Notes: generated by a model not told the origin, from the letters alone. 64,000 bases of DNA from Bdellovibrionota bacterium (GCA_044238365.1 JBIIDM010000001.1:8769-72768), one strand, 5' to 3'; counted from the stretch's first letter, positions 11,448 through 54,322 are shown. Numbers and translations: made by a program.

Positions 11448-12038
11448 TTGATTTTCAACACGTGTAAAGTCTACTGCTCCTCACCAACAAAAATGAAATT
11501 ACTCTTGAAATTACTTCTTTTTTTTCCACTGATGAGTTACGGCCTTTGCTTCCGTGCTCTTTGTGAAGGCATTCCATTCCAACTTCCCCCTAAAAGTGAA
11601 ATCCTCAAAATCAAAAGCACTACGATTAAAACAAACAAAGGCTCACTATACTTCGAATTATTTCCTGAGGTAGCGCCGCTCCACGTTACAAACTTTAAAT
11701 ACTTAGCGGACAAAGGATTTTTCACGGGTGCAACATTTAAAGATTTCGAATATATTCTTCAGGCAAAGCCCACCGCACGATTGAAGTACTCACTTTCCCC
11801 AGAGTTCTCCAAGCGACCACATTCCCGTGGAGCACTTGGAATGGCCCGGTGGGAAGACGAGATTAACCCGGAACGACGGTCGAGCGCTTCACAGTTTCAT
11901 ATTCTTAAGCATGATGGTCGGCACATGGATACCCGCTACTCGATCTTTGGCACTCTGGTAAAAGGATGGAAGGTGCTGGAGAACTTAAGATCGGAAGACT
12001 CCGTCACCGAGGTTATTGTATATATCCGAAAAAAGTGA
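11448..12038 (+). CDS. Peptidyl-prolyl cis-trans isomerase, cyclophilin type (probably secreted).
   Basis: The cyclophilin-like core is YFELFPEVAPLHVTNFKYLADKGFF ... IFGTLVKGWKVLENL. The probable true start is Met at ~11493 (MKLLLKLLLFFPLMSYG signal peptide). Confidence 0.55.
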   Translation: MIFNTCKVYCSSPTKMKLLLKLLLFFPLMSYGLCFRALCEGIPFQLPPKSEILKIKSTTIKTNKGSLYFELFPEVAPLHVTNFKYLADKGFFTGATFKDFEYILQAKPTARLKYSLSPEFSKRPHSRGALGMARWEDEINPERRSSASQFHILKHDGRHMDTRYSIFGTLVKGWKVLENLRSEDSVTEVIVYIRKK

Positions 12039-12446
12039 GTCCTCATGTCAATGTCAATTTTTCATGACTTCCTCCCTATGTGGGCAGAGCGGGACGTGCC
12101 ATCCAGCTCGGTATTGATCCCTACGATCCTACCGTCATCGCATCAATACTCTATGATACTCTGCAAGCAGAAGGGCAAACTCTTAACGCCTGGCCCGGCG
12201 GGTTTATGTACCCACCATGGAGCCTTTGGATTTTCTTTCTGTTTTCCCTCCAGGCTACACATCAATTGCGCTCGCTGCTGGCTAGGCCCATTTTTTGCGG
12301 AGCCGTGATGCTGTCTCTATCCTTTCTTGCTGTGCTAGCGCAAATTCAAATTGAGCACCTTGCCTATTTTATGAACAAGTCCAGAGTGCCAGAGGATCAA
12401 ACCCGCGGCCCCTTCGGTGACGATTAAACCACACCGCCCCCCCACG

Positions 12447-18978: not shown

Positions 18979-19160
18979 AGCCTGAGTTCGACGTAAGAAC
19001 AAAGGTAAATGGTTGAAATTGCTTTAGAAACGAGGCGTGCAGTGATATAAAAGCGCAGGCTGAGAAGCTTGCTACGTCGAGCATTTTATATCATGAGCAA
19101 CGAAGTGGATGAAGTAATTTTAACCATTTACCGCACAGTTCTTACGTCGAACTCAAGTTA
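18979..19160. mobile_element. MITE-like palindromic repeat element, copy B (~182 bp). It is inserted between the ABC ATPase and permease genes of one operon.
   Basis: The ends are cctgagttcgacgtaagaac ... gttcttacgtcgaactcaagtt. The internal sequence aligns to copy A over its full length. The element abuts the ATPase stop codon. Confidence 0.8.
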
Positions 19161-19934
19161 TTAGCTGGCTCCGTGCTTAGTCTCGCCACCATTCGAGGAT
19201 GGAATTGCGTCATCATTTTCGATGGGTTTATCGTAGCTAACACACTCAAGAAACAGTTGCTCAAGAGTTCGATCTCTTGTTATTTCTGCGAGTTTTCCCT
19301 CCCGTACAATCGTTCCCCTATTAATAATAACAACCTTGCTGCAGACCATGGTAACTTCTGGAAGGATATGGGTACTCAACAATAAAGTCTTTTCTTTGCC
19401 CAGGTCCTTGATCAGGTTTCTAATATCTATGATTTGACGCGGATCTAACCCACTCGTAGGCTCATCCAGAATCACCACTTGAGGATCGTGAACTATTGCC
19501 TGTGCAAGGCCAACCCTCTGCCGATACCCCTTGGAAAGCTGACCACAAAGGCGCCGAAACACATCCTTGAGAAAACAACGCTCGGCTGCTTTCTCAACAC
19601 TTTCCTTTAAATTTTTGCTCGCTACTCCTTTAATCCGTGCTACAAAATACAGGTACTCCTCCACTGACATCTCCTCATACAAAGGGGGATTTTCCGGAAG
19701 ATACCCGATTACCCGCCTTACCTGGTCAGCTTCTTTTTTTATGTCAAATCCGGCTATTTTTGCCGTTCCAGATGAAGGCGGCAAAAAAGTAGACAACATT
19801 CGAATGGTAGACGTCTTTCCGGCACCGTTTGGACCGAGAAACCCGACTATCTCACCTCGTTCAGCAGTAAAACTAACTTGATTTACGGCCTTATATTCTC
19901 CGTATGCTTTAGAAAGTTTATGTACCTCGATCAT
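19161..19934 (-). CDS. ABC transporter ATP-binding protein (GldA-like).
   Basis: Walker A GPNGAGKTS, ABC signature LSKGYRQRV and Walker B ILDEPTSGLD are all present. Confidence 0.9.
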   Translation of the reverse strand: MIEVHKLSKAYGEYKAVNQVSFTAERGEIVGFLGPNGAGKTSTIRMLSTFLPPSSGTAKIAGFDIKKEADQVRRVIGYLPENPPLYEEMSVEEYLYFVARIKGVASKNLKESVEKAAERCFLKDVFRRLCGQLSKGYRQRVGLAQAIVHDPQVVILDEPTSGLDPRQIIDIRNLIKDLGKEKTLLLSTHILPEVTMVCSKVVIINRGTIVREGKLAEITRDRTLEQLFLECVSYDKPIENDDAIPSSNGGETKHGAS

Positions 19935-20635
19935 GATAATACCACCATAAAGTGAATTGTTTGTTCAGGTACCCTGCCAATTAATGACAAGATCCATGAC
20001 TGTTAGAGGGCAGAGTGCCGCAGGTCTTAACAAAACAGGAAGAGTCAAATGGGAGTCTCTGCAGCCATTTAAGCCTAAAAATTCCAAATTCGCCCGCACG
20101 GATCTCCTACTAAGCGGGGCCGCATCTTAGTAACGCTGACCCCCAATCCCGTTAGGGCTAGCCGACACACGAATAGTGAATCGAAGCAATGAGTATCGTC
20201 AAGTGGTTGTAAGGAAGTACCCTGCTGTAAGTTATACTGCGCTTCATTTAGCTTCAGGATTCGATGGGAGAATAGAGTTAAGCGGCTGAAAGCTTATTGT
20301 CTTGAACAAAGCATACGCGTACTCCGTTGCAACGGTAATGGTGGATTCTAGGACATCAATCAAGGTAAACATTTCAGTGCGTTATCCATATTTTACCACC
20401 ATATTAGATGAGCACCAGCAAATCCAGAACCCCCGTAAGAAAGACCCACAGGGAGGGAAGCACACGACCGCTCGATAACCCGGAAACTTCGTTGGTGAGT
20501 ACGATTTTTTGTAAGTACCTCCCCCAGAACTGACCAAACATTAGTTTACGCGAGCGGTATAACCCACCATATCATCATTAATAACTATTTGAAATTACCT
20601 AATTTATGGCATATCCCCCACCGTGAAACTGCCTT

Positions 20636-21067
20636 GTGAAGGTAATTGAATCATTTGAGTTAGACAAAGAGACCTTGGTATATAGAACAACGCAGCGTTT
20701 GCGTTTCACTTGGTTCGTAAACATTAAGAGAGGTTGGAACATGGGCAATTCACAGGTCAGAAATGAAAATTTCTTTGATAAGTTTGGTCTTGAAGTCACA
20801 ACAGGAGTAGTTGAACCAGGGAAAACGTACCCTATATATGGCATGATTACTAAGTTCTACAATGACACGCCGGGAGAAGTGGAAGTTGAGATTAATTTTA
20901 AGATACGAGCCAAAATGACTATTCCGGACGCCTCCAAAGTGGAAACACTAAAACAACGGTCATTTGAGCCCGGGATTTTCGTGGGAACAGTCGTAAGCAA
21001 TGTAGATGAACTTATCGTAGACTGCTCGACCGTTATATTTGGAAAAAAGGTCAATTACCAGGCCTAG
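20636..21067 (+). CDS. Hypothetical protein.
   Basis: 143-aa ORF. An alternative start MGNSQV lies at ~20741. No recognisable motifs. It follows a 700-bp non-coding stretch. Confidence 0.35.
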   Translation: MKVIESFELDKETLVYRTTQRLRFTWFVNIKRGWNMGNSQVRNENFFDKFGLEVTTGVVEPGKTYPIYGMITKFYNDTPGEVEVEINFKIRAKMTIPDASKVETLKQRSFEPGIFVGTVVSNVDELIVDCSTVIFGKKVNYQA

Positions 21068-21191
21068 TGCAAGGACTAGAAACTTACGGGCCTGTTCCAA
21101 TGGTCCCGTTAGGCTCTTTTTGCTTTTGATCTATGTAGTTATAATATATAGTGCGAGGGAGCTTTAACGAATCAATTTATGGACTCTCTCT

Positions 21192-21782
21192 GTGAAGGAC
21201 ACTCTACAAAACCTTCTGTTCGTTCTTTTATGTCTCTCCGGCGTATTATTCGTCCGAGGGAGTGTGGTTGAAGGATTCAGGATTCCTAGCCAGTCAATGA
21301 GCCCGACTTTGGAGGTAAACGATTATATTCTGGTCTGGAAGCTTGCTTATGGCTTCAATCCTCCTTTTTCCAATAAACCGATAATCAGATGGTACAATCC
21401 TGCCCGAGGTGTTCCCATTGTCTTCTTCCGAGAAGATGATCCCTCTACAAAAATCGACGAGTCTGCTCTTCATCTCATAAAGAGAGTCATAGGACTTCCG
21501 GGAGAGAAATTAGAAATTGTTGGAAAAAAGGTCTTTATCAATGACGCAGAGCTGCATGAACCTTACGCAGTCTGGAAAAGGAACGGAGCCGAATTTGAGC
21601 ATTTTGGTCCCGTCGTTATCCCCCCTACAGGCCTCTTTGTTATGGGTGATAACAGAGATGAATCTCAAGATTCGAGATTCTGGGGCGACCAGCCCTTCGT
21701 GTCAATTAACAAGGTCATAGGTAGAGCTTTCATGATCTACTATTCGAAGCAATACTCAAGATTTGGAAAGGTGGTTAGTTGA
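21192..21782 (+). CDS. lepB: Signal peptidase I.
   Basis: An N-terminal TM segment is present. The catalytic-Ser box SQSMSPTL and the GDNRDESQDSRFWG box are both found. Confidence 0.85.
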   Translation: MKDTLQNLLFVLLCLSGVLFVRGSVVEGFRIPSQSMSPTLEVNDYILVWKLAYGFNPPFSNKPIIRWYNPARGVPIVFFREDDPSTKIDESALHLIKRVIGLPGEKLEIVGKKVFINDAELHEPYAVWKRNGAEFEHFGPVVIPPTGLFVMGDNRDESQDSRFWGDQPFVSINKVIGRAFMIYYSKQYSRFGKVVS

Positions 21783-22690
21783 TGATAAACAATTCATTAC
21801 AAGGATATATTTGGCCGGAATCAACAGTGATGATAGTGAGTGGACACGATGCCGAGAGGTACCTCCACAATCGCCTGACCCAAAACATTCGCTCTATCCA
21901 GCCCAACGAAGCAAAATATTTTGCGGCCACTACTGCCCAATCGAAAATTCAAGGTATTGGCTCAATTCTTAAACTTGAAGATAACTCATACTTGCTTTTT
22001 TCTACGATAGGAAACCGAGACAGATTTGTCAAAGCGATCACCGAATTTAAGGTCGCCGACCGTGTTGTCTTTGAACCCCTTCCAAAGTCTAGAATTACAA
22101 CCATTGTCACCACGGATAAATTTTCAACCTCTCCGCTCCAAGGAATGGAGCCGCAAACGTTCACCGGCACAAATTCATCCTCCAGAGATGTCGCAAAATC
22201 GGCTGATGGAATATCTTTTAGCTTCTCCTCCCCGCTGGGCTTTGATCTTGTGGAACTAGCCCCGCCATTTCGTGAAATAGAAGAAATATCCTGGACTCAG
22301 TTTAATGGTATTCGCGTAAATGCACGGCTTCCGCTATTTACTATTGATTTTGACGAAAGTACCCTGATTATGGATACGGGCCTCAAAAATCATATTGGGT
22401 TCGGTAGTGGATGCTATGTTGGACAAGAAGTAATCGAGAAAATCGACGCTCGTGGCAAAGCGCCTCATCGATTTGATTTCTTTCGATGTGAGGACAGTGA
22501 TGACTTACTCACCCCCGGCGCTCCAGTCGAGGCCCAGAAAGAAGGAACATGGAAAATTTCGGGAAAGATCAGTTCATGCGCTGCATCTCCTAATAATGGA
22601 GCAGAGAAATGTCTGATCGCTTTTTTAAGAAACGAAGACTTTAGCGAATACAGAAGTAACGGCATAACGCTCACACCTAATAATCCGTAA
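21779..22690 (+). CDS. YgfZ/GcvT-like folate-binding protein.
   Basis: The N-terminal segment GHDAERYLHNRLTQNI resembles the YgfZ/aminomethyltransferase signature (GxDxxxFLQGQLTxDV). It overlaps lepB by 4 nt. Confidence 0.45.
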   Translation: MMINNSLQGYIWPESTVMIVSGHDAERYLHNRLTQNIRSIQPNEAKYFAATTAQSKIQGIGSILKLEDNSYLLFSTIGNRDRFVKAITEFKVADRVVFEPLPKSRITTIVTTDKFSTSPLQGMEPQTFTGTNSSSRDVAKSADGISFSFSSPLGFDLVELAPPFREIEEISWTQFNGIRVNARLPLFTIDFDESTLIMDTGLKNHIGFGSGCYVGQEVIEKIDARGKAPHRFDFFRCEDSDDLLTPGAPVEAQKEGTWKISGKISSCAASPNNGAEKCLIAFLRNEDFSEYRSNGITLTPNNP

Positions 22691-22814
22691 CTCTTTGTTA
22701 CTCAAAAGAAGACTTATAGATTCCTAGTAACTCTACTCAGGTGCCCTCAACATAAATGCGCCCCAAAAGCGAGCTAACCAGCTGTAACTGCCAGTGATTT
22801 TTCAAGGTCGGGGA

Positions 22815-22912
22815 AAGTGATTGTTTTGTGAATGAGGCGTGGTACTCCAGGTCGCAGTGAACAAAATCAATCACTGGACGAAGAGATTGGGAAAATACCT
22901 GAGCAGTTACCT
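22815..22912. repeat. Degenerate or chimeric repeat fragment (copy D) sharing modules with element C.
   Basis: gaggcgtggtactccaggtcgcagtga (22834-22860) matches 36276-36303 in about 25 of 28 positions. It also shares gacgaagagat and a cctgag..cagttaccttt end-like segment. A local 14-bp inverted repeat flanks the shared module. Confidence 0.6.
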
Positions 22913-23785
22913 TTAATCAAACTTTACGAAGGCAGGCGCGGCGACCTCACGAACCGAATCATCTCGGTCGGGACTGGTAATCTGTAATATCAGGACCACA
23001 AAAAGAAGATCTATCCAGAACACAACTGCCCTTAAAATCGATATCAACGAAACCTTATTGTTTATTATCCAAAAGGAATTAAAGAAAATAGGCTTTGTCC
23101 ATACGTCACTCAAATATGCATCAAACACAGAAAATAAAAAGGATGAAACAAATGATATCGAAATTAAAATAAGTCCTCCGTTAAAAAAATTAATTAGTTT
23201 ATTAGGAAGAAATATTCGCTTAATGTGCATCAATACAAACATGATTAAAGCAAGGTACGTGAAAATGAATAGTAGCTGGGTTGACAACATCACATTTTCA
23301 GTACGAATGTGCTCTACTGTACGTAACGTTAACATATAGTGAAGTCGATCAAAGGCTCGAAGTAAAACCCGTTGGAAATTTTCGCCGGTTTGGACTCCTT
23401 CTCCCATTATTAGTTTTTCCCAGCCTATGTCCATCAATAGCGAAAAAAGTACCACACAAACCATTCGCAAGGAAAAATCAAACCATGCACCGATACATTT
23501 GACCGAAGTTCTGGTTAACGATCCGGCGACCATGGCGGGAACCGACCATGTCAGCACCTGGCATAAAACTGATAAGAAAAGTATAACTCCAAATCCAATT
23601 GGATTTTTAACGTCAATTACGGCTACGTATGCGTTAAAAAACTGGGTTCCCTGAATCGATAATATATACGCGACAACAACAGAAAGGACCCCTACTGCGA
23701 AAAGCCGATTAAGCACCCTTACGAAATCTACTGGGGCCGACGCTGAAGAACTGGAAGTAGCAGTCTTATCTTTCACAGAAACCAT
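22913..23785 (-). CDS. Hypothetical polytopic membrane protein encoded in a locally AT-rich gene.
   Basis: 290 aa with at least 7 hydrophobic segments and F/I/L/N-rich, AT-biased codons unlike neighbouring genes. Repeat debris lies on both sides. Confidence 0.5.
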   Translation of the reverse strand: MVSVKDKTATSSSSASAPVDFVRVLNRLFAVGVLSVVVAYILSIQGTQFFNAYVAVIDVKNPIGFGVILFLSVLCQVLTWSVPAMVAGSLTRTSVKCIGAWFDFSLRMVCVVLFSLLMDIGWEKLIMGEGVQTGENFQRVLLRAFDRLHYMLTLRTVEHIRTENVMLSTQLLFIFTYLALIMFVLMHIKRIFLPNKLINFFNGGLILISISFVSSFLFSVFDAYLSDVWTKPIFFNSFWIINNKVSLISILRAVVFWIDLLFVVLILQITSPDRDDSVREVAAPAFVKFD

Positions 23786-23949
23786 CTTAAAAAAATTTAA
23801 AACACAACGTTCAAACCCAGACGATACGCAAAAAGGGCCTTAAGTGACTCTGATTACCTCCTCTCTTCTCATATTATAAGTTGCTCGACCTAGCATGCTA
23901 TGCCGCGCTAATCTCATTAACGCCTGGTGTCTAAAGTAATTCTATCCCG

Positions 23950-23976
23950 TTACCTTTGTTCTTATCCGAAACTCAG
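23950..23976. repeat. Solo terminal-repeat remnant of the mini-palindrome subfamily.
   Basis: ttacctttgttcttatccgaaactcag closely matches the right arm of the 6487-6569 element (ttaccttttttcttatccgaaacttagg). No partner arm is visible nearby. Confidence 0.55.
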
Positions 23977-24102
23977 CTTATTACGGTGCTACCCATTTAG
24001 AGGAAATTTTAAAACTGTTACAAAACACGACGCTTCTGAGGTATGATGCTATGCCGATACTAATCGTGGCATCCTAAATTAAAGAAAGAAAAGAAAAAAA
24101 CA

Positions 24103-24774
24103 ATGTCTCAGACTGAATCTCTAATTGAATTTCTAATTTCAAGCCAAGTTCTTAAGTTCGGAGAATTTACGACCAAATCGGGGCGCACAAGCCCCTATTT
24201 CCTAAACTTTGGCGCAATAAGTACCGGAACTCAAATCAAGTTCCTCGGGACGTCTTACGCGGAGAAAATCGAATTATCTTTTCTCAGTCAAGCTAATGTA
24301 GTGTTTGGCCCCTCGTACAAGGGTATTCCTCTGGCAGTCGCTATTGCCAGTCACCTTGATTCTCCACAACGAACGACGTTCTTTTGCTTTAATCGAAAAG
24401 AAGCTAAGGCTCATGGCGAGGGAGGAACCTTAGTTGGACGTCAGTTACAACCTGGAGACAAGGTGGTAATAGTTGAAGATGTTGTTACCGCTGGAACAAC
24501 CGTTCACGAAGTTGTCCCTCTGATTCGCCAGATCCCCGGTGTCGAGATTCTGGGTATGGTCATTGCTGTAGATAGGGAAGAGAAGATTACGGAAAGCGAT
24601 GATTCAACGGCCTGCGAAGTATTAGGGAGACAGTATGACTTACCTATACTTTCGTTATTGAAAATTCGGGACATACTCAAATATCTATCAGCTCCCAACA
24701 AAAGTGGTGTGGCTCTGAGTGATCAGGAAATTAAAGCTGCAACCCTCTACCTAAATCAGTACGGATGTAAATGA
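24103..24774 (+). CDS. pyrE: Orotate phosphoribosyltransferase.
   Basis: FGEFTTKSGRTSPYFLNFG and the PRPP-binding motif KVVIVEDVVTAGTT are both present. Confidence 0.85.
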   Translation: MSQTESLIEFLISSQVLKFGEFTTKSGRTSPYFLNFGAISTGTQIKFLGTSYAEKIELSFLSQANVVFGPSYKGIPLAVAIASHLDSPQRTTFFCFNRKEAKAHGEGGTLVGRQLQPGDKVVIVEDVVTAGTTVHEVVPLIRQIPGVEILGMVIAVDREEKITESDDSTACEVLGRQYDLPILSLLKIRDILKYLSAPNKSGVALSDQEIKAATLYLNQYGCK

Positions 24775-25166
24775 GACTTTTGGCAATTATTTTAACGCTG
24801 CTTTCTATAGCTACAATAGTTCCACCTGCTGCCTTATCTGCCGACAACAACCAGATTGCCGAAAGCGTGTATAGCGAAATTAATAGCCCGTTTTGTAAAG
24901 GGAAGTTACTTCGCGACTGCCCCAGCTCTGGTGCATCTGGATTAAAGCAGGAAGTTGTTGATTTGGCGGCACAGGGTAAAACCAAAGAAGAAATCATCAG
25001 TGCGCTTTATGCCCGCTATGGGGATGAAATCAGAGCTGTCCCAAGTTCTTCATTTATTGGAAAGTTGGCTTGGCTTGTCCCATTTTTGTTCATGGCAATA
25101 GTTTTGATTATTATGGGATTCTGGGTGAAGGCGAATATTTCGCGGAACAGGGAGAAGATTGGATGA
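24771..25166 (+). CDS. ccmH: Cytochrome c-type biogenesis protein CcmH-like.
   Basis: Signal peptide, a Cys-containing segment SPFCKGKLLRDC and QEVVDLAAQGKTKEEIISALYARYGDEIRAVP are present. The last aligns with E. coli CcmH QEVYRMMQEGKSDEEIVDFMVARYGDF. A C-terminal TM segment follows. It overlaps pyrE by 4 nt. Confidence 0.6.
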   Translation: MRLLAIILTLLSIATIVPPAALSADNNQIAESVYSEINSPFCKGKLLRDCPSSGASGLKQEVVDLAAQGKTKEEIISALYARYGDEIRAVPSSSFIGKLAWLVPFLFMAIVLIIMGFWVKANISRNREKIG

Positions 25167-25364
25167 TTTTCCCATATTAGATTGGTTTGATTCCTGTGAC
25201 TGTTGCTTTGTTCGTAAGGGGCTCCGTGGAGTGAAAAGAAACCAAGGACCAGTTCTTTAACTTTGATGACTGCTTCTTCCCTGAAGAAATCATACCGTTC
25301 CAGTAAGGTTATTAATCAGACCCAGATCATTTCTACGCCCCTTGCCTATCTTTGTTTCGACCAG

Positions 25365-25395
25365 TATAGTTGGTCAAAAATCAACTTTTTGACCA
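25365..25395. promoter_or_regulatory. Palindromic candidate operator (TTGGTCAAAAA-N5-TTTTTGACCAA) immediately upstream of the AAA ATPase start.
   Basis: A perfect 11-bp inverted repeat ends 3 nt before the ATG at 25399. Confidence 0.4.
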
Positions 25396-25398
25396 ACT

Positions 25399-26577
25399 AT
25401 GTTAGCTAGATTAATAACCAGTCGTATAAATTCAACATTTTCTAGTATTCTCCTTACAGGGCCTCGACAGGTAGGAAAATCTACGCTCCTTAGATCATTA
25501 AAACCAGATCTAGAGGTAAATCTCGCGGATCAGGGAGTTTTTATTCGACATTCCAAAGATCCCGAACTCATTCGAAAGTTAGTACTAGCTCTACCAAAAG
25601 GCTCGACCATATTACTTGACGAGGCTCAACGACTACCAGAAATTCTCAATACAATACAAGTATTAATCGATTCTGAAGGGTATCGATTTCTTGTAACCGG
25701 CTCTAGTGCAAAGAAATTGCACAGAGGCAAAGCAAATTTACTACCAGGTCGACTAATCAGTGAATATCTAGACCCACTCTCATATCTTGAGGTCGGAAAA
25801 GACAACTTTGACCTCGCCAGAGCACTGCGCTTTGGAATGCTTCCAGGCATATTTTTGAATAAAGATGAGGGGGGGAGGATCTTAGATAGTTATGTTGACT
25901 TATATCTTCGTGAAGAGATTCAAGCCGAGGGATTAGTCCGATCTTTAGGGAGTTATGCCAGATTCTTGGAACTTGTAGCTATAACAAGTGGGCAGTGGCT
26001 AAACTATTCGAAAATTAGTTCAGATAGTGAAATTCCAAAAGAGACTATTCGGAATTTTACGAGCGTTCTTGAGGAAACGTTATTGCTGTTTAGGATCAGC
26101 TCGTTTCAAATCAGCAAAAAATTTACTCAAAAGTCCCAAACTCGTAAGGTCCAACAAAAGGAAAAAGTTTTATTGTTTGATGTTGGGGTAAGAAACTCCC
26201 TGTTACGAATTGGAGGCAACGAAGTGCCTCTCCATGACGTTGGATCAGTATTTGAGCAGTGGATGATTCTACAAATCATCTATCTAAATCGAGCTCTTAA
26301 TAAGAAATGGAAAGTTTCATCCTTCCTTGATAGTAATGGCTTGGAAGTCGACTGTGTCATTGAAACCGAAAATGAGCTACTTGGTATAGAAATTAAGTCT
26401 GGTACGAAATATAGATCAGACTGGATAGTGGGGCTGAATTGCTTTGTTGAATATGTTGGTACAGTAAAGCCCGTAAAGAAGTTTATAGCCTATACCGGTG
26501 ATGATGTTCAGAAACTTGATGATCAGACTATGGTTTATCCGTATTCTTTGTTGCTTGAAGTGCTTTTTCAATATTGA
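25399..26577 (+). CDS. AAA-family ATPase (AAA_14 + DUF4143 architecture).
   Basis: Walker A LLTGPRQVGKSTLL and Walker B-like ILLDEAQRLPE are present. The C-terminal region is typical of DUF4143 proteins. Confidence 0.7.
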   Translation: MLARLITSRINSTFSSILLTGPRQVGKSTLLRSLKPDLEVNLADQGVFIRHSKDPELIRKLVLALPKGSTILLDEAQRLPEILNTIQVLIDSEGYRFLVTGSSAKKLHRGKANLLPGRLISEYLDPLSYLEVGKDNFDLARALRFGMLPGIFLNKDEGGRILDSYVDLYLREEIQAEGLVRSLGSYARFLELVAITSGQWLNYSKISSDSEIPKETIRNFTSVLEETLLLFRISSFQISKKFTQKSQTRKVQQKEKVLLFDVGVRNSLLRIGGNEVPLHDVGSVFEQWMILQIIYLNRALNKKWKVSSFLDSNGLEVDCVIETENELLGIEIKSGTKYRSDWIVGLNCFVEYVGTVKPVKKFIAYTGDDVQKLDDQTMVYPYSLLLEVLFQY

Positions 26578-26643
26578 TGGGCACTATGGAGAATTTGCTT
26601 TGTTTCCTCATCAAGTTTCGAACAATCCATATAGCGCTTCCCC

Positions 26644-27594
26644 CTACCAAGCTGTCAACAACAACACACTCAATATTCCCGGAAGATAAATCACCGATGC
26701 ACGAAGCAGCCGATACGCATTCTTGGTGTTCTTCGCCCGAAGAAAATCCACCGAAGCCTTCAAGTAAACATAAAATAAGGCCACCGCTGCCGGTGCATAA
26801 ACAACCGAACATCGCGCATAAAAAAGCGGAAGCAACGATACGCCAAGCAAAAGGACCAGAAAGAAAGCAATTTGAAAAAACATTTTGCGCCCCGTCTCAT
26901 CAACGGAAGGAAGCATGACAAACCCGCCCCGTTCATAATCTTCTTTATAAATCCAGGCAATGGAGTAAAAATGTGGGTGCTGCCAACAAAAAAGCAAAAG
27001 AAAGAGAACGACACCACCCAGATCAATCTGCCCCGATCCGGCGACCCATCCTCCCAATGGCGGTAACGCGCCTGGAATAGCTCCCACTACGGTATTCCAC
27101 CAGGAAATCTTCTTCATGGGTGTATAAATCCCCAAATACAAAACTGCTGTTACGGTCGAAATCAGGCCGCAAAGCGGATTTATAAGTATCCATAACATCA
27201 CACACCCGCTGATCGTTAACAACAAACCGAAAACCAAAGCAATCATCGGCTCAAGAGTTCGAGAAGGTAACGGTCTCTTCTGAGTTCTCCGCATCAAACG
27301 ATCTTCGTCCTGTTCAAGATACTGATTCAAAACGCCGACTCCGGCACAACTAGCACTCGACCAGAGTAACAATTCGGCCAGGCGCAGCAGATCTAGCTCA
27401 CCACGGGATCCCAGCAAATACCCGATTAGTGTAGTAATCTGTACCATCACCACTATTCTTGGTTTGGTAAGAGAAAGATATTGGCGGGCTATTTGTCCGG
27501 GAGCCAACTCGGTTCGTGCCAAATCACGTTCAGCCAATTCATTGGATAAAGTTAGATCCAGACTCATAATCTTCTTCCTAGTAACAGCAAACAC
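26644..27594 (-). CDS. ctaB: Protoheme IX farnesyltransferase (heme O synthase).
   Basis: A UbiA-family polytopic membrane protein with the LTKPRIVVMV... motif region. It overlaps gpsA by 1 nt. The start is possibly the internal Met at ~27567. Confidence 0.8.
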   Translation of the reverse strand: MFAVTRKKIMSLDLTLSNELAERDLARTELAPGQIARQYLSLTKPRIVVMVQITTLIGYLLGSRGELDLLRLAELLLWSSASCAGVGVLNQYLEQDEDRLMRRTQKRPLPSRTLEPMIALVFGLLLTISGCVMLWILINPLCGLISTVTAVLYLGIYTPMKKISWWNTVVGAIPGALPPLGGWVAGSGQIDLGGVVLFLLLFCWQHPHFYSIAWIYKEDYERGGFVMLPSVDETGRKMFFQIAFFLVLLLGVSLLPLFYARCSVVYAPAAVALFYVYLKASVDFLRAKNTKNAYRLLRASVIYLPGILSVLLLTAW

Positions 27595-46557: not shown

Positions 46558-49032
<2,475 letters not shown>

Positions 49033-49137: not shown

Positions 49138-50199
49138 TTATAAAAACAAAACATCAAAACCTTCGTTCTGTATACTATCGGCCAGTTCCAGGTTGGTCGA
49201 GGTAACAAATACCTGCCATCCTGTAGCCCTTATTACGCGAAGTAAGGACCTTCTACGTTTTTCATCAAGTTCAGAATCAACATCATCAAGAATAAGAACA
49301 GGGGTCTGATGAAGGGAATTAGATAGGTTTTGGGCCGTTGCTACCGTGAGCGCCAATGTTGCAGCCCTTATTTGCCCCTGCGATCCGAACTCCTTAATAG
49401 GCCTCCCACCCATCAGGATCTCCATATCATCAAGGTGGATGCCGATTTGAGGACGTCTGAACCGAAGCTCTTTCTGCAACTGTCTCTCTAATGTGCTGAA
49501 AGCCTCCTGCTCAGATCGAACTACACCAAAGGTTGTCACGTATCTTATTTTGAGATCAACTCCCTCGCCGAATAGCTCTTGAAACACCACCGAAAAATTT
49601 GCATTAAGCTTATCGATTACTTCGTATCGACGCTGAATTATCTCCCAAGCTGATTTTGCAAGTAACTCGTTCCACGTTCTAATATCTGAAGGATTTGCGC
49701 CTTGTTTAAGCAGCGTTCTCTTATGGGCAAGTGTTCGACCATAAAAATTGTACAGCTCTATTAAAGGTGGATTAAGTTCAATAATATGTTTATCAACGAG
49801 CCCCCTCCGTACGACTGCCCCTCCCTTTACGACTCCCAGACTATCAGGGGAAAAACCTATCACCAGAAAACTGCCCACAAAATCCTTGATCTTGGTAATT
49901 AACTTACCATCCCGAGATATCTGCCGTCGCCCGGACTCGACCGTTACTGACAAATTAAAAGAACCAATATCATCGGAACAAAGACCCGAAACTATAGCTG
50001 CAGAGTTTTCATGTTTAATAAGTGCCCGAAGCTTTGAACGCTTCAATGAAACTCCTGTCCCTAACAGATAAATCGCCTCTACCAGATTCGTTTTTCCTCT
50101 ACCATTTTGAGATAGAATAAAATTCAGGCCCCCTCCAAATGAAAATGAGTTTTCCGCAAAGTTCCTAAAATTCTGTAAATACAATGATCGTATCTGCAA
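49138..50199 (-). CDS. recF: DNA replication and repair protein RecF.
   Basis: The Walker A is GQNGRGKTNLVEAIY. It sits in the conserved position between dnaN and gyrB. Confidence 0.9.
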   Translation of the reverse strand: MQIRSLYLQNFRNFAENSFSFGGGLNFILSQNGRGKTNLVEAIYLLGTGVSLKRSKLRALIKHENSAAIVSGLCSDDIGSFNLSVTVESGRRQISRDGKLITKIKDFVGSFLVIGFSPDSLGVVKGGAVVRRGLVDKHIIELNPPLIELYNFYGRTLAHKRTLLKQGANPSDIRTWNELLAKSAWEIIQRRYEVIDKLNANFSVVFQELFGEGVDLKIRYVTTFGVVRSEQEAFSTLERQLQKELRFRRPQIGIHLDDMEILMGGRPIKEFGSQGQIRAATLALTVATAQNLSNSLHQTPVLILDDVDSELDEKRRRSLLRVIRATGWQVFVTSTNLELADSIQNEGFDVLFL

Positions 50200-50214: not shown

Positions 50215-51324
50215 TTACTCAATTCTTATCGGCATTACCATGGCTATTGAGTGTTCATCATCGCAAGGGTAGAATCTGGCTGGCTCATTTCCATTCAATA
50301 TTTCAATAACGATCTTTTCTGATATCAAAAACGAGCTAACAACATCTATAAGGAACCGAGCATTGAAACCAACACTGATTGGTTCATCGGTACCAACAAT
50401 GACCAACCGTTCTTCACTCTCTCCAAGCTCTGGACTACGGCTTGATATTCGCATGCTATCCTCTGCGATGTCGACCCTTACCCCCTGCCCCTGAGAGGCA
50501 AGGATAAGCGAAACACGGCGCAATGCGTCAGAGAACTCCTGGACCAGGATTTCAATCTTGACTCCTGAGGACTTGGGAAAAGCCCGAGCATAATCGGGAT
50601 AATCAACATCCATAAGACGAAGCGCAAACTTTGAGGAATCACTCTTAAAAACGACAAACCCCCCTCCGAATCCAACTTCAACCTCTTTAAGATGACCATC
50701 GTCAAAAACTCTACGTAGTTCAGAAAGGCCTCTTTTAGGGAAAAGCACCCTATGCCCAAGCCGCAAATCGGGGATATCTCTAGTTGAAAGCGCAAATCTA
50801 TGTCCGTCAGTGGCAACCATAGTTACCCTTCCATCGGAAGTCGGTTCAAAACAAATACCACTCAAATTAAACTTAGCCTCATCATGAGAAGCCGCATAGA
50901 TAGTTCTGTTGATCATTTCAGCAAAAATACGGCAATCGATCTTCCGATCTGTCACCAGGTCTAATCCCGGAATTTTTGGAAACTCAAGAGCGCCCAGCAC
51001 ATTCAATTTATATTTGGTGGTATTAGATTTAATTTCAAGCTTTTTTGCGTCCGAGAGTGAAAGATTCATCAAGCCTGTCGGCAGCTGGCGAACAACATCG
51101 GCAAACATCTTTCCGGGGACTGAAAATGTAGCTGATTGCTTTACTTCGGCAGGTACTTGCATAGAAACAGAAACTTCCAGATCCGTCCCCGACACTTCTA
51201 TTTGCCCATTATCTATCCGCACTAAAAAATAAGACATAATCACAAGAGGAGATTTTTTGCCTATAAATGCCTGGAGTGTATTCAAGGCCTTCGACAAATC
51301 ATCCTGCTGAACGACACACGACAT
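50215..51324 (-). CDS. dnaN: DNA polymerase III beta sliding clamp.
   Basis: 369 aa with a three-domain beta-clamp pattern. It lies directly downstream of dnaA. Confidence 0.9.
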   Translation of the reverse strand: MSCVVQQDDLSKALNTLQAFIGKKSPLVIMSYFLVRIDNGQIEVSGTDLEVSVSMQVPAEVKQSATFSVPGKMFADVVRQLPTGLMNLSLSDAKKLEIKSNTTKYKLNVLGALEFPKIPGLDLVTDRKIDCRIFAEMINRTIYAASHDEAKFNLSGICFEPTSDGRVTMVATDGHRFALSTRDIPDLRLGHRVLFPKRGLSELRRVFDDGHLKEVEVGFGGGFVVFKSDSSKFALRLMDVDYPDYARAFPKSSGVKIEILVQEFSDALRRVSLILASQGQGVRVDIAEDSMRISSRSPELGESEERLVIVGTDEPISVGFNARFLIDVVSSFLISEKIVIEILNGNEPARFYPCDDEHSIAMVMPIRIE

Positions 51325-51637
51325 AAAAGACTCCTATATCTAGATTAAATATATATATTCATAGTAGTAGTAGTAGTTAGGTGTGGTTTCTGTTGATAGA
51401 CTGCCTAACTAATTGAAACAGTAGAACTTCCCAGGCTCGGTTGTTGTGGTTTTTAGCTTGGCGTATTCCCGGGTTATGCCCACAAAAGCATTTTGTGGAC
51501 TATCTAGATATAGATAGTCCACAGGTAGTGCGTAGGTTTTCCACAGGAATTACCGGAAAAAACATAAAAAAATCAACAAGATGGCTCCGTTGATAACAAA
51601 ACCACCGCTTGCGACAATCTAAAATCAGAAACATTCT
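51325..51637. promoter_or_regulatory. Candidate oriC in the dnaA-dnaN intergenic region.
   Basis: DnaA-box-like 9-mers were read directly: TTTTCCACA at 51537-51545, and the inverted pair TGTGGACTA (51494-51502) / TAGTCCACA (51515-51523) around a TCTAGA core. An AT-rich stretch taaatatatatattcatagtagtagtagtag (51345-51376) could act as an unwinding element. Gene orientation and plus-strand G+T richness switch around this locus. Confidence 0.55.
51362..51376. repeat. (TAG)5 trinucleotide microsatellite within the candidate origin.
   Basis: tagtagtagtagtag was read directly. Confidence 0.9.
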
Positions 51638-53194
51638 CTAGCTGAAAAGTTTCCTTTCTATTTCGGAGACAAGTTCTCTCACAGAAGCCTCGTCGCTGAC
51701 CTTGTTTGCGACGACACTCGCGGCGTGGATTACGCTGGAGTGGTCTCGTCCGCCAAATTTTTCGCCAATCTCGGGGTAGGAAGCTGTTGTATGTTTCCTG
51801 CAGAGGTACATGGCTACATGTCGAGGAAACGAGAGATTTTTTGTCCGTCGTTTAGATATTATTTCTGACACTTTGATTGAGAAGTGTTGTGCTACCGCCT
51901 TCTTGATGTCCTCTATGTTGACTGATATTTTTTTCGGTTCTAGTAGGGGTTTGAGGGCCACTTGGGCCATTTGCAGCGTAATTGGAACCTTCTGCAGGCT
52001 GCTAACGGCATGCAATCTGGTTAGTGCTCCCTCTAATTCCCTAACGTTTGAGGAGATATTCTCGGCTATAAGGTATGCAACGTCCTCGGGAAGGTGAAAG
52101 TTCTCAAGGAGAGCTTTGCGTTTAAGAATTGCAGCTCTAGTCTCAAAATCTGGCGCTTGCAGATCCGCCGTTAAGCCCCAGGCAAAGCGGGTCTGAAGCC
52201 GCTCTTCAATTCCATCAATTTCGGAAGGAATTTTGTCAGAAGTCATTACGATCTGACGCTTGCAACTATAAAGGGCGTTAAACGTGTGGAAGAACTCTTC
52301 CTGGGTTCTTTCCTTTCCGCTTATGAACTGAATGTCGTCAATAAGGAGTATCTCAATGCTTCGTAGCCTTGTCTTGAATTCCTCCATTTTTGCGTTCCGA
52401 AGCGCCTGAATGAGCTCATTCGTAAAGGCCTCAGAAGAAATATAAAGCACTTTCGAGTTGGGGTTTCGGCTGAGAGCGGCATTTCCAATCGAGTGTAGAA
52501 GGTGTGTTTTGCCAAGCCCTACGCCGCCGTAGATAAATAGAGGGTTGTAGCTTTCACCTGGTTGTTCAGCGACTCTACAGGCAGCGGCGTTACAGAATTG
52601 ATTGTTGCTTCCAACTACAAAGCTTTGAAAGGTGTATTTGGGGTTTAGGTTGTTGAAAGTGTGGTGATCGTTTGGCGTACTGGTAGATTCGACGGGCTCG
52701 GCGGTGGGACTGGCGTGGCGTCGTTTTATAACGGTTCGAGATGATCCATCAAGTTGGCTTGCTAGTAGCGATTCATTTGGTGCCTTTGGTTCCTGAACAA
52801 CGTACGTGAGAATCAAGTTGGGAACGTTAAGCAATTCCTTAAGAAGCGTTTCTATTCGCCGGGAGTAGTTTCGCTCTATAAGTTGGCACTGAAGTTTTGT
52901 CGGCGCAGAGATTGTTAGGGCTGTTTCGTCAAATTCCCTTACGTCACCTTCTGTAAGTTCAACGATTAGCGGTTCGAAGTATGCGGAAAAGGCATGTTGA
53001 CCTACTTCGGTCTTAATCACCTCCAACATGTCATTCCATGCGTTTACTACTAATCCTTCGTGAATGGGTTCTCGGACAAAAGGTACGCCGTTTTGAAGTT
53101 GGTTGTAGGTGGTGTTCTCTCTAGTTGTGTTTTTGGTTGTGTCACTAGTAGTTGACTGGGTTGTTGATAAAAATAAATCTGGCGCAATATTCAT
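51638..53194 (-). CDS. dnaA: Chromosomal replication initiator DnaA.
   Basis: The AAA+ Walker A is GGVGLGKTHLLHSIG. The C-terminal DNA-binding domain carries GGRDHSSVIHA. The N-terminus has a T/N-rich low-complexity ~50-aa extension before domain I. Confidence 0.95.
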   Translation of the reverse strand: MNIAPDLFLSTTQSTTSDTTKNTTRENTTYNQLQNGVPFVREPIHEGLVVNAWNDMLEVIKTEVGQHAFSAYFEPLIVELTEGDVREFDETALTISAPTKLQCQLIERNYSRRIETLLKELLNVPNLILTYVVQEPKAPNESLLASQLDGSSRTVIKRRHASPTAEPVESTSTPNDHHTFNNLNPKYTFQSFVVGSNNQFCNAAACRVAEQPGESYNPLFIYGGVGLGKTHLLHSIGNAALSRNPNSKVLYISSEAFTNELIQALRNAKMEEFKTRLRSIEILLIDDIQFISGKERTQEEFFHTFNALYSCKRQIVMTSDKIPSEIDGIEERLQTRFAWGLTADLQAPDFETRAAILKRKALLENFHLPEDVAYLIAENISSNVRELEGALTRLHAVSSLQKVPITLQMAQVALKPLLEPKKISVNIEDIKKAVAQHFSIKVSEIISKRRTKNLSFPRHVAMYLCRKHTTASYPEIGEKFGGRDHSSVIHAASVVANKVSDEASVRELVSEIERKLFS

Positions 53195-53614
53195 CTAGAA
53201 ACCAAAAAAAGACGAAAAAGAGAGCATCGGTTCAGTTAGATAGGACTAGTGGAGAGTAGCGAAACCTTAGCAATTTACAACAGTAATATCTAGATAAAAT
53301 CTAGACTAGCGGCTTTAATCTAGTAATATTATAAGGTTGGTTGGTTATTTTTTTTTCTTAGTAAAAGTTAGATAAACTAGATAACGTTTTTCGTTGGCCT
53401 GGAGTGGCTGTGGCAGGGGCGGGGCTTGGGCTTTGATGGGCATTTTAGATGGGGGTGAAATCTAATCGGAGGCTGTGCGGGTTTTGTTCAAGAGGAGCGA
53501 CTCCCGCGTGTGGGTTGATATTAGATATGGCCAAACGCGAATGCGTGGGCCAGCTATTAGGAGTCCCTTCGTGTGTTCTAATTTCAAGGGTCTAGCCCGC
53601 TCCCGTGAGTCTTT

Positions 53615-54322
53615 CTACTGGCTTGTTACTTCAAAGATAGAGTGGTCGCTTAGTAGGTATTTGCGTTCAAATGGGCTTAGATAGTCGGTTCGGGGGGTGA
53701 GCGGTGTAAGTTTGTGGGGTAGGTTGTGGGTGGCAAGAGCAACCGAAAACTCAAGCGCGTAGATTCTCCAGTTGGTTCTTAGGGTGATCGACTCGCTGAT
53801 ATGCAGTAGAGTTGGAAAGATGGGGTGAGCATGCCATCTTCGTTTTATATGTTTCTTTTTGGGCCAGGGGTTTGGGTACAATATATAGGTGTCGCATCTA
53901 AGGTTGTGTTCAGCTAGACTACTCCAGACGTCCTCACATCTCTGTTGGGTAATCAGAAGATTAACCGGAAGAGACGGTTTTTGTTTGGATAATCTATGAG
54001 CTGATTTATCAAAACCCACGATAAATTTGTCGGGATAGGCTTTAGCTAGAGCGACTGAGCTCTCACCGGTACCGCAACCCGAATCTAAGATAATAGGTAT
54101 TCGCAGCCGACGCACCTCATCTAAGCAGCTGTTTAGATGGACAAGTTCCGCGCTCTTTTTGATTTGTTTTAAGTATTTGAATTCACTATATTTATTTACC
54201 AAATTTTCCAAATCAGGGTGTACTGAAACTTGATTTGACGTTACCGGGTTGCTGTTACCAAGAGCAGGGGCGTCTTGACGGGCTGTCCGTGTTGTTGCAG
54301 GACTATTTTCGGGTGTGTTCAT
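53615..54322 (-). CDS. trmB: tRNA (guanine46-N7)-methyltransferase.
   Basis: The SAM motif is ILDSGCGTGESSVALA. The TrmB motif is YILYPNPWPKKKHIKRRW. Confidence 0.8.
   Translation of the reverse strand: MNTPENSPATTRTARQDAPALGNSNPVTSNQVSVHPDLENLVNKYSEFKYLKQIKKSAELVHLNSCLDEVRRLRIPIILDSGCGTGESSVALAKAYPDKFIVGFDKSAHRLSKQKPSLPVNLLITQQRCEDVWSSLAEHNLRCDTYILYPNPWPKKKHIKRRWHAHPIFPTLLHISESITLRTNWRIYALEFSVALATHNLPHKLTPLTPRTDYLSPFERKYLLSDHSIFEVTSQ

Follow-up and report, generated by a model that had tools for sequence, protein, structure and literature searches.

The basal unwinding system (BUS) of bacterial origins is understood to consist of a DnaA box, often a second and weaker tandem box, a short spacer, a run of 3'-GAT-5' trios and an AT-rich region, and the DnaA-trio element has been predicted in most bacterial origins (PMC8287927). 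The commonest published arrangement has tandem boxes with the upstream one nearer to consensus, which is not obligatory; the published rule permits up to 4 mismatches in the second box, and the modal spacer between box and trios is 10-13 bp (PMC8287927). A GC-rich cluster, classically of 4-5 bp, is frequent before the trios but not essential, as H. pylori mutants without the cluster still unwind.

The closest described systems are those of B. bacteriovorus and B. subtilis. The origin of B. bacteriovorus, located in the dnaA-dnaN spacer, has been bound and unwound by DnaA experimentally and contains GAT trios (Makowski et al., 2016; PMC5124646). The BUS entry of strain HD100 is given as 3'-AAAAGGTGC GGG GATGATGATGATGAT-5', with (GAT)5 (Pelliciari et al., 2021; PMC8287927), while that of B. 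subtilis reads 3'-AATAGGTGT TTAGGTGT CCGG GATGATAATGAAGATGAT-5' (PMC8287927). The BUS of B. subtilis incC has been described by Richardson et al. (2019) and Pelliciari et al. (2021, 2023). In B. subtilis DnaA, Ile190, within the initiator-specific motif, serves in single-strand binding and Arg264 is the arginine finger (PMC8287927). An upstream distal box of the B. subtilis origin assists through looping. A 2016 study by Richardson et al. is said to have also dealt with the basal unwinding system of B. subtilis incC.

The window described here, i.e., the whole 64-kb stretch of DNA that was analysed, was found to encode, on the minus strand, gyrB (46558-49023), recF (49138-50199), dnaN (50215-51324) and dnaA (51638-53194), each supported by strong matches in Pfam, in agreement with the order dnaA-dnaN-recF-gyrB given in the original prediction. 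A flip in gene orientation had been placed at the spacer between dnaA and dnaN. It sits instead near 54.3 kb, because dnaA and the next gene past it (53615-54322) are still encoded on the minus strand. Neither rpmH nor rnpA adjoins dnaA in the window. In a protein search, DnaA and GyrB of the window shared only ~62-65% identity with named proteins, the named matches being labelled as Bdellovibrionales, Oligoflexia, Dadabacteria or Deltaproteobacteria MAGs. The structures to which the window DnaA aligned best were 8BTG and 8BV3 of B. subtilis DnaA; in the alignment to 8BTG it keeps an Ile at the Ile190 position and an Arg at the Arg264 position.

The start of dnaA is ambiguous, with public gene calls giving a 518-aa form and a 463-aa form (start 53029; 53029-53194 in question). 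In one related locus (L081, see below), the 55 N-terminal residues of the long form appear to be conserved at protein level, which favors that form. An Rfam scan of positions 51000-54000 gave no match inside the spacer, and no support was found for the small ORFs (23-50 aa) of the spacer. The same scan gave a sub-threshold match to AsdA, an antisense RNA of the dnaA mRNA (Rfam), at 52451-52531 on the plus strand within the dnaA CDS (34.2 bits against a gathering threshold of 52, E = 1.5e-4); this probably reflects conservation of the dnaA CDS and not a real antisense RNA. The strongest tandem repeat of the window is located at 197-290, with a 15-nt GC-rich unit, CCAGGCGCGCCACCA, in 6.3 copies with 94% matches.

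For comparison, nine related dnaA-dnaN loci (L081, L082, and L084-L090), with DnaA proteins 100% to ~59% identical to that of the window, were found by protein search followed by contig look-ups; the close relatives are all uncultured. Matches from a DnaA scan of a genome collection were left unused, being only distant relatives (Geobacter and similar) at most 55% identical. Three further contigs, which lacked the spacer or a DNA sequence, were set aside.

The GC skew of the window is approximately -0.2 over the 50 kb to the left of the spacer and approximately +0.2 to its right, with a cumulative minimum at 51340 at single-base resolution, a local minimum as it refers to the 64-kb window. The G+T excess likewise reaches its minimum, within the 64-kb window, at 51648, and the flip in plus-strand G+T richness that had been noted here is upheld. 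On the coding strand, the third-codon GC skew of the genes to the left is positive (gyrB +0.17, recF +0.33, and dnaN +0.19) and that of dnaA (-0.25) and of the next minus-strand gene (-0.33) is negative. Because this skew flips between co-oriented genes, the switch between leading and lagging strand is placed between dnaN and dnaA, and not upstream of dnaA. The third-codon skew is negative for dnaA and positive for dnaN in all nine related loci, and the cumulative skew minimum lies inside the spacer in L086, L087, and L089 and just past it in L088. The position of the minimum had been proposed as a check between the spacer and the 420 bp upstream of dnaA; within the window, it falls in the spacer. 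Elsewhere in the window, the otherwise steady negative skew is broken at ~19000-27000, where GC skew is near zero and GC content is lower (~41-44%), and this stretch may represent a plus-strand gene cluster or an acquired island.

The features of the spacer and of the region upstream of dnaA are as follows (mismatches are counted against the DnaA box consensus TTATCCACA):

51325-51637, minus strand: dnaA-dnaN intergenic spacer, as a whole the candidate oriC, on the basis of box density, skew and relatives

51335-51361, no strand assigned: putative AT-rich DNA unwinding element, with one ATCTAGAT at 51338-51345, on the basis of duplex stability

51362-51376, plus strand: putative DnaA-trio array of five perfect 5'-TAG-3' (3'-GAT-5' x5), on the basis of consensus, position and relatives

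51377-51381, minus strand: gap cctaa from the proximal box to the first trio, taking the place of the "GC-rich" cluster found elsewhere

51382-51390, minus strand: weaker box nearest the unwinding element, GAAACCACA, 3 mismatches, in the orientation of the stronger box

51391-51399, minus strand: stronger BUS box, CTATCAACA, 2 mismatches, 14 bp upstream of the first trio

51474-51482, plus strand: extra weak box-like site, TTATGCCCA, 2 mismatches

51494-51523, no strand assigned: perfect 30-bp palindrome with 13-nt arms (51494-51506 and 51511-51523) and a 4-nt centre

51535-51562, minus strand: most conserved block of the spacer, TTTTTTCCGGTAATTCCTGTGGAAAACC, containing the TTTTCCACA box

51537-51545, plus strand: TTTTCCACA box, in the orientation opposite to the two trio-adjacent boxes

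51588-51596, minus strand: extra weak box-like site, TTATCAACG, 2 mismatches

53195-53614, minus strand: dnaA upstream region, a putative dnaA control region, with a promoter-like block and flanking TTATCTAG/ATCTAGAT motifs

When read from dnaA to dnaN, the trio-proximal part of the spacer is CTATCAACA GAAACCACA cctaa CTACTACTACTACTA tgaatatatatatttaatctagatataGGAGtcttttATG, i.e., boxes, gap, (CTA)5 and AT-rich DNA. The (TAG)5 tract is the sole one of its kind in the 64 kb, and an exact 15-mer of this sort is unexpected by chance. A trio element is recognized by a run of three or more trinucleotides, each with A in the centre on the bound strand, and here five perfect 3'-GAT-5' units were found. 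The BUS rule was re-implemented so as to require a box with no more than 2 mismatches, 0-16 bp between box and trios, and four or more trios; the trio pattern was tightened to [G/A]A[T/A] instead of the published NAN, and both strands were scanned. Only one match was obtained in the 64 kb, at the spacer, with a box-trio spacer of 14 bp and 5 trios, and in shuffled sequence 0.2 matches were obtained for four or more trios and 0.01 for five or more. The matching box is CTATCAACA, which stands before the 14-bp spacer in the fixed orientation 5'-TTATCCACA-spacer-CTA..-3', as do the boxes of the B. subtilis and Bdellovibrio entries. It is directly followed by GAAACCACA to form a tandem pair, with GAAACCACA as the second box of the BUS, and equivalent weak boxes are also present in relatives. 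A GC-rich cluster of 4-5 bp was not found before the trios, as only 2/5 positions of cctaa are G or C; in relatives, ccc, tca, c or gac is found in its place.

The AT-rich element lies beside the box cluster and follows the trios. It coincides with the least stable duplexes of the 64 kb, both at 30 bp (51335-51364) and at 50 bp (51323-51372), which adjoin (TAG)5. The description of an AT-rich block ending in (TAG)5 was accurate, with 51335-51361 adjoining 51362-51376, and an AT-rich block follows the trios in every relative. An exact-pattern scan of metagenome DNA for the junction of unwinding element and dnaN gave no match.

A CTA-type array was found in all nine related spacers, where it stands upstream of dnaN with AT-rich DNA directly after it. 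When three trios were accepted as the minimum, the BUS rule matched the spacer in seven of them (L081, L082, L084, L086, L087, L089, and L090), with a box-trio spacer of 13-14 bp, and in L085 and L088 a single CAA unit interrupts the CTA array. Conservation in the remainder of the spacer is poor (60% mean column identity), with the exception of the block containing TTTTCCACA. In L088, which is from a Bdellovibrionales MAG, the array reads CTA CTA CTA CAA CTA CTA and is located 383 nt upstream of the annotated dnaN start, in a spacer of 807 nt (11465-12271); either the dnaN start has been mis-called or this origin has an extra segment.

The original prediction regarded (TAG)5 as an unusual microsatellite inside an origin, a view which has to be given up, as the tract corresponds to the DnaA-trio of the BUS and is present as (GAT)5 in B. 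bacteriovorus HD100. We infer that (TAG)5 is the known DnaA-trio unwinding element and, putatively, a single-strand track for the DnaA oligomer; as a known element, the finding is therefore real but ordinary. It had also been suggested that slippage would change the spacing within the unwinding region. Variation in copy number does occur and lends the slippage idea some support, since L089, in which DnaA is identical, has (CTA)4 where the window has (CTA)5 (L089 6089-6160 against window 51325-51399). A change in trio number is reportedly tolerated: three extra trios were without harm to unwinding in H. pylori, and the minimum number in B. subtilis is three (PMC8287927). The L089 and window spacers differ by five single-base changes and one 3-nt deletion, which leaves (CTA)4, and because of this deletion the array is length-polymorphic between near-identical strains.

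Five units against four, in spacers which otherwise differ by only those 5 single-base changes, could be taken to indicate that (TAG)5 is a neutral, slippage-prone microsatellite in AT-rich intergenic DNA with no role in initiation. However, the array keeps its place, its strand and its distance of 13-14 bp from a box in the same orientation, directly before the AT-rich block, and this retention spans lineages in which DnaA is only 67-86% identical and the spacers have otherwise diverged. In these deeper lineages the array changes by substitution, mostly to the trio-compatible triplet TTA, or by one CAA interruption, with its position kept; changes of this type in a fixed place are argued to reflect selection rather than neutral repeat drift. 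In addition, the box-spacer-trio pattern is unique in the 64 kb, with ~0.01 expected by chance, and identical arrays are documented elements of origins. A neutral repeat is thus considered highly improbable, and the DnaA-trio reading is preferred.

Six box-like sites with at most 2 mismatches are found in the 313-bp spacer, which is the maximum for any 313-bp segment of the 64 kb and is reached solely by segments overlapping the spacer. One-mismatch boxes are not enriched over the window as a whole, with 13 observed and 14.6 expected. The presence of the TTTTCCACA box in the spacer, which had been reported, was confirmed on the plus strand at the position listed. The block around it (51535-51562) has invariant columns in five lineages (alignment A1), and a block CCGGTAAAA..CTGTGGATAAC is also present in L086, L087, and L088. 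In the form TTTTTCCGGTAA..CTGTGGA(A/T)AA, the block holding the TTTTCCACA box was found in all lineages.

The palindrome at 51494-51523 had been described as a palindromic pair of DnaA boxes. The inverted pair is present, with arms (TGTGGACTATCTA and TAGATAGTCCACA) longer than stated, but the separator is the 12-nt tctagatataga and not the 16-mer quoted, which overlaps the boxes. The palindrome resembles a DnaA box at its outer ends (TAGTCCACA, 2 mismatches) and has TATCTA/TAGATA as its core. As a pair of boxes it is not conserved in the relatives, where the CCACA box of the second arm is not kept; what persists is the dnaA-proximal arm (TGTGGAnTA on the minus strand) together with the inner TATCTA/TAGATA palindrome. 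The hairpin is kept in L081, L090, and L082 and is absent from L084. Folding of the element gave z-scores of about -5, and in a further comparison an energy of -19.8 kcal/mol with a z-score of -6.7. In L089, mirrored A>G and T>C changes, one in each arm (window positions 51499 and 51518), leave all 13 pairs complementary, which suggests a constraint on pairing or symmetry. The T>C change also adds one pair to a second, overlapping hairpin, CCACAAAA tgc TTTTGTGG (window 51480-51498), which has 9 pairs in L089 instead of 8.

The palindrome may not be a pair of DnaA boxes but a hairpin in the transcript which ends or attenuates dnaA transcription ahead of the origin, a cruciform, or an operator for a dimeric regulator binding TATCTA/TAGATA, an interpretation that is held tentatively and at somewhat less than even chance. 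The terminator scan flags the minus strand, which is the sense strand of dnaA, although the stem of 13 pairs contains 5 G-C and AAAAUGC comes before the UUUU run (AAAATGC before the T run in DNA), whereas a terminator has its U run immediately after a GC-rich stem. The folding energy, with a z-score of -6.7, is in favor of a structural role, as are the mirrored changes of L089, for which the chance was estimated at ~0.004 given 5 single-base changes in 313 bp; however, template-switch mutation within a palindrome could presumably mirror changes without selection. The inner hairpin persists in L081, L090, and L082, where the second CCACA box does not, and palindromes of the ATCTAGAT type are also found beside the dnaA promoter. 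Against this, there is no hairpin in L084, and in relatives the outer arm TGTGGAnTA makes a good box, with 1 mismatch in L081, L084, and L090. Whether a hairpin of the dnaA transcript, a cruciform or an operator with symmetry, the element could overlap a DnaA box.

The 420 bp upstream of dnaA could be proposed as the functional origin or as the essential half of a bipartite origin like that of B. subtilis or H. pylori, as bipartite origins flanking dnaA are known (B. subtilis, H. pylori, and C. difficile). The region holds AT-rich DNA at 53314-53363, which is the fourth least stable 50-mer of the window, as well as repeated conserved motifs, and a 1-mismatch box is found at 53162-53170. However, only two boxes with at most 2 mismatches are located nearby (53162 and 53289), compared with six in the spacer, and neither a trio array nor a match to the BUS rule was found there. 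Moreover, the skew of dnaA is already that of the right replichore, which puts the strand switch downstream of dnaA, and an origin upstream only is already disfavored by the skew. The conserved block of the region resembles a sigma-70 promoter with operator-like flanking motifs. It is located at 53253-53280 on the minus strand, with a -35 of TTGTAA (53275-53280), 16 nt, and a -10 of TACTCT (53253-53258), and is kept in L081, L082, and L084 (TAATCT in L082); in a sigma-70 promoter scan, matches were no more numerous than in shuffled sequence. An origin upstream of dnaA, whole or in half, is thus judged improbable, and the region 53195-53614 is probably a dnaA control region rather than an unwinding site.

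A further feature of both regions flanking dnaA is the 8-bp palindrome ATCTAGAT, all three full copies of which in the 64 kb are found there (51338-51345, 51502-51509, and 53288-53295). Half-sites of the TTATCTAG/TAGATA type are present at 53193-53199, 53299-53305, 53237, 53369, and 53378, and the two flanking regions (898 bp in total) hold 8/12 of the ATCTAGA and 10/37 of the TAGATA/TATCTA matches of the window. The two ATCTAGA sites at 25508 and 25766, inside an ORF, look like chance copies and were set aside. Copies of the ATCTAGAT type are located in the 30-bp palindrome, between the unwinding element and the ribosome-binding site of dnaN, and on both sides of the promoter-like block. The enrichment is kept in L081, L082, L084, and L085 and is absent from L086-L088. 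The motif was considered as a variant DnaA box and rejected, since it departs from the box at positions 6 and 8, both among those that phyla have in common. Because these positions are altered, DnaA itself is unlikely to bind ATCTAGAT, and a separate lineage-specific ATCTAGAT-binding protein is the more likely explanation.

Among the sites are ones overlapping a DnaA box, ones at the border of the unwinding element, and ones on either side of the dnaA promoter. Two readings beyond the standard BUS-type origin are possible but doubtful: the ATCTAGAT sites and WWATCTAGW half-sites would be operators of a new lineage-specific regulator of the origin and dnaA, and the trio array would be a true natural microsatellite. 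In the latter case, the single-strand track for DnaA would show standing variation in length.

Within the window, the spacer thus combines a skew switch, a cluster of DnaA boxes and an AT-rich unwinding element. The original placement of a candidate oriC between dnaA and dnaN is backed by skew, box density, duplex stability and the comparison with relatives. On this sequence evidence, the dnaA-dnaN spacer is very probably the chromosomal replication origin and contains a canonical BUS. Points against this reading are the weakness of the trio-adjacent boxes (2 and 3 mismatches), the gap cctaa, which is not GC-rich, and the AT-rich DNA at 53314-53363.

At such an origin, DnaA binding, filament formation on the trios and unwinding would be expected. 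Domain IV of DnaA would bind the double-stranded boxes, chiefly the tandem pair CTATCAACA and GAAACCACA (51382-51399, minus strand), and from this pair an oligomer of ATP-DnaA would grow onto the trios, with one protomer per 3'-GAT-5' on the plus strand at 51362-51376. The oligomer would then stretch the plus strand and open the AT-rich DNA at 51335-51361, where the helicase would be loaded, with forks leaving both ways. Bidirectional forks from the spacer would account for the switch in strand composition at ~51340, and with unwinding downstream of dnaA the flip in gene orientation near 54.3 kb is expected. The distal block at 51535-51562 probably provides accessory or regulatory sites for DnaA and co-factors, as does the palindrome at 51494-51523, and the distal conserved box may act by looping, as does the upstream box of B. 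subtilis.

This would provide a confident origin annotation for an uncultured lineage resembling Bdellovibrionota or Oligoflexia, and another natural example of the conserved layout of box, spacer, GAT trios and AT-rich DNA, including the 13-14 bp spacing. Where (TAG)n/(CTA)n tracts adjoin a DnaA box between dnaA and dnaN, annotation as DnaA-trios, and not as an anomaly, is called for. The polymorphism of five against four units and the ATCTAGAT motif are small leads on the control of initiation which go beyond the textbook picture.

Among known systems, the oriC2 trio of C. difficile, 5'-CACCTACTACTATTACTACTATGA-3', is nearly identical to the minus strand of the window, CACACCTAACTACTACTACTACTATGA, and is likewise located in the dnaA-dnaN spacer directly before the unwinding element (PMC7561715). 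However, C. difficile is a Firmicute with a bipartite origin, both halves of which are needed for melting in vitro (PMC7561715). The arrangement at incC of B. subtilis is shared by the window in that tandem boxes, the upstream one being stronger, are followed by a short spacer, trios, an AT-rich element and dnaN, with a further distal box upstream, and Ile190 and Arg264 are conserved in DnaA. Between the better box and the trios there are 12 bp in B. subtilis, compared with 14 bp in the window. The B. subtilis trios are degenerate (GAT GAT AAT GAA GAT GAT) and follow CCGG/GGCC, whereas the window has five perfect units and no GC cluster. The B. subtilis origin is also bipartite, and initiation there involves DnaD and DnaB.

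In comparison with B. bacteriovorus, which has a single box 3 bp (GGG) from the trios, the window has two boxes in tandem, the better one at a distance of 14 bp, and its gap before the trios is 5 bp and not GC-rich. No ATCTAGAT motif family has been reported for B. bacteriovorus. The candidate origin of the window nevertheless has in common with that of B. bacteriovorus HD100 its place in the dnaA-dnaN spacer of a dnaA-dnaN-recF-gyrB cluster, an unwinding element on the dnaN side, and a perfect (GAT)5 with a box of the same orientation beside it and AT-rich DNA after it.
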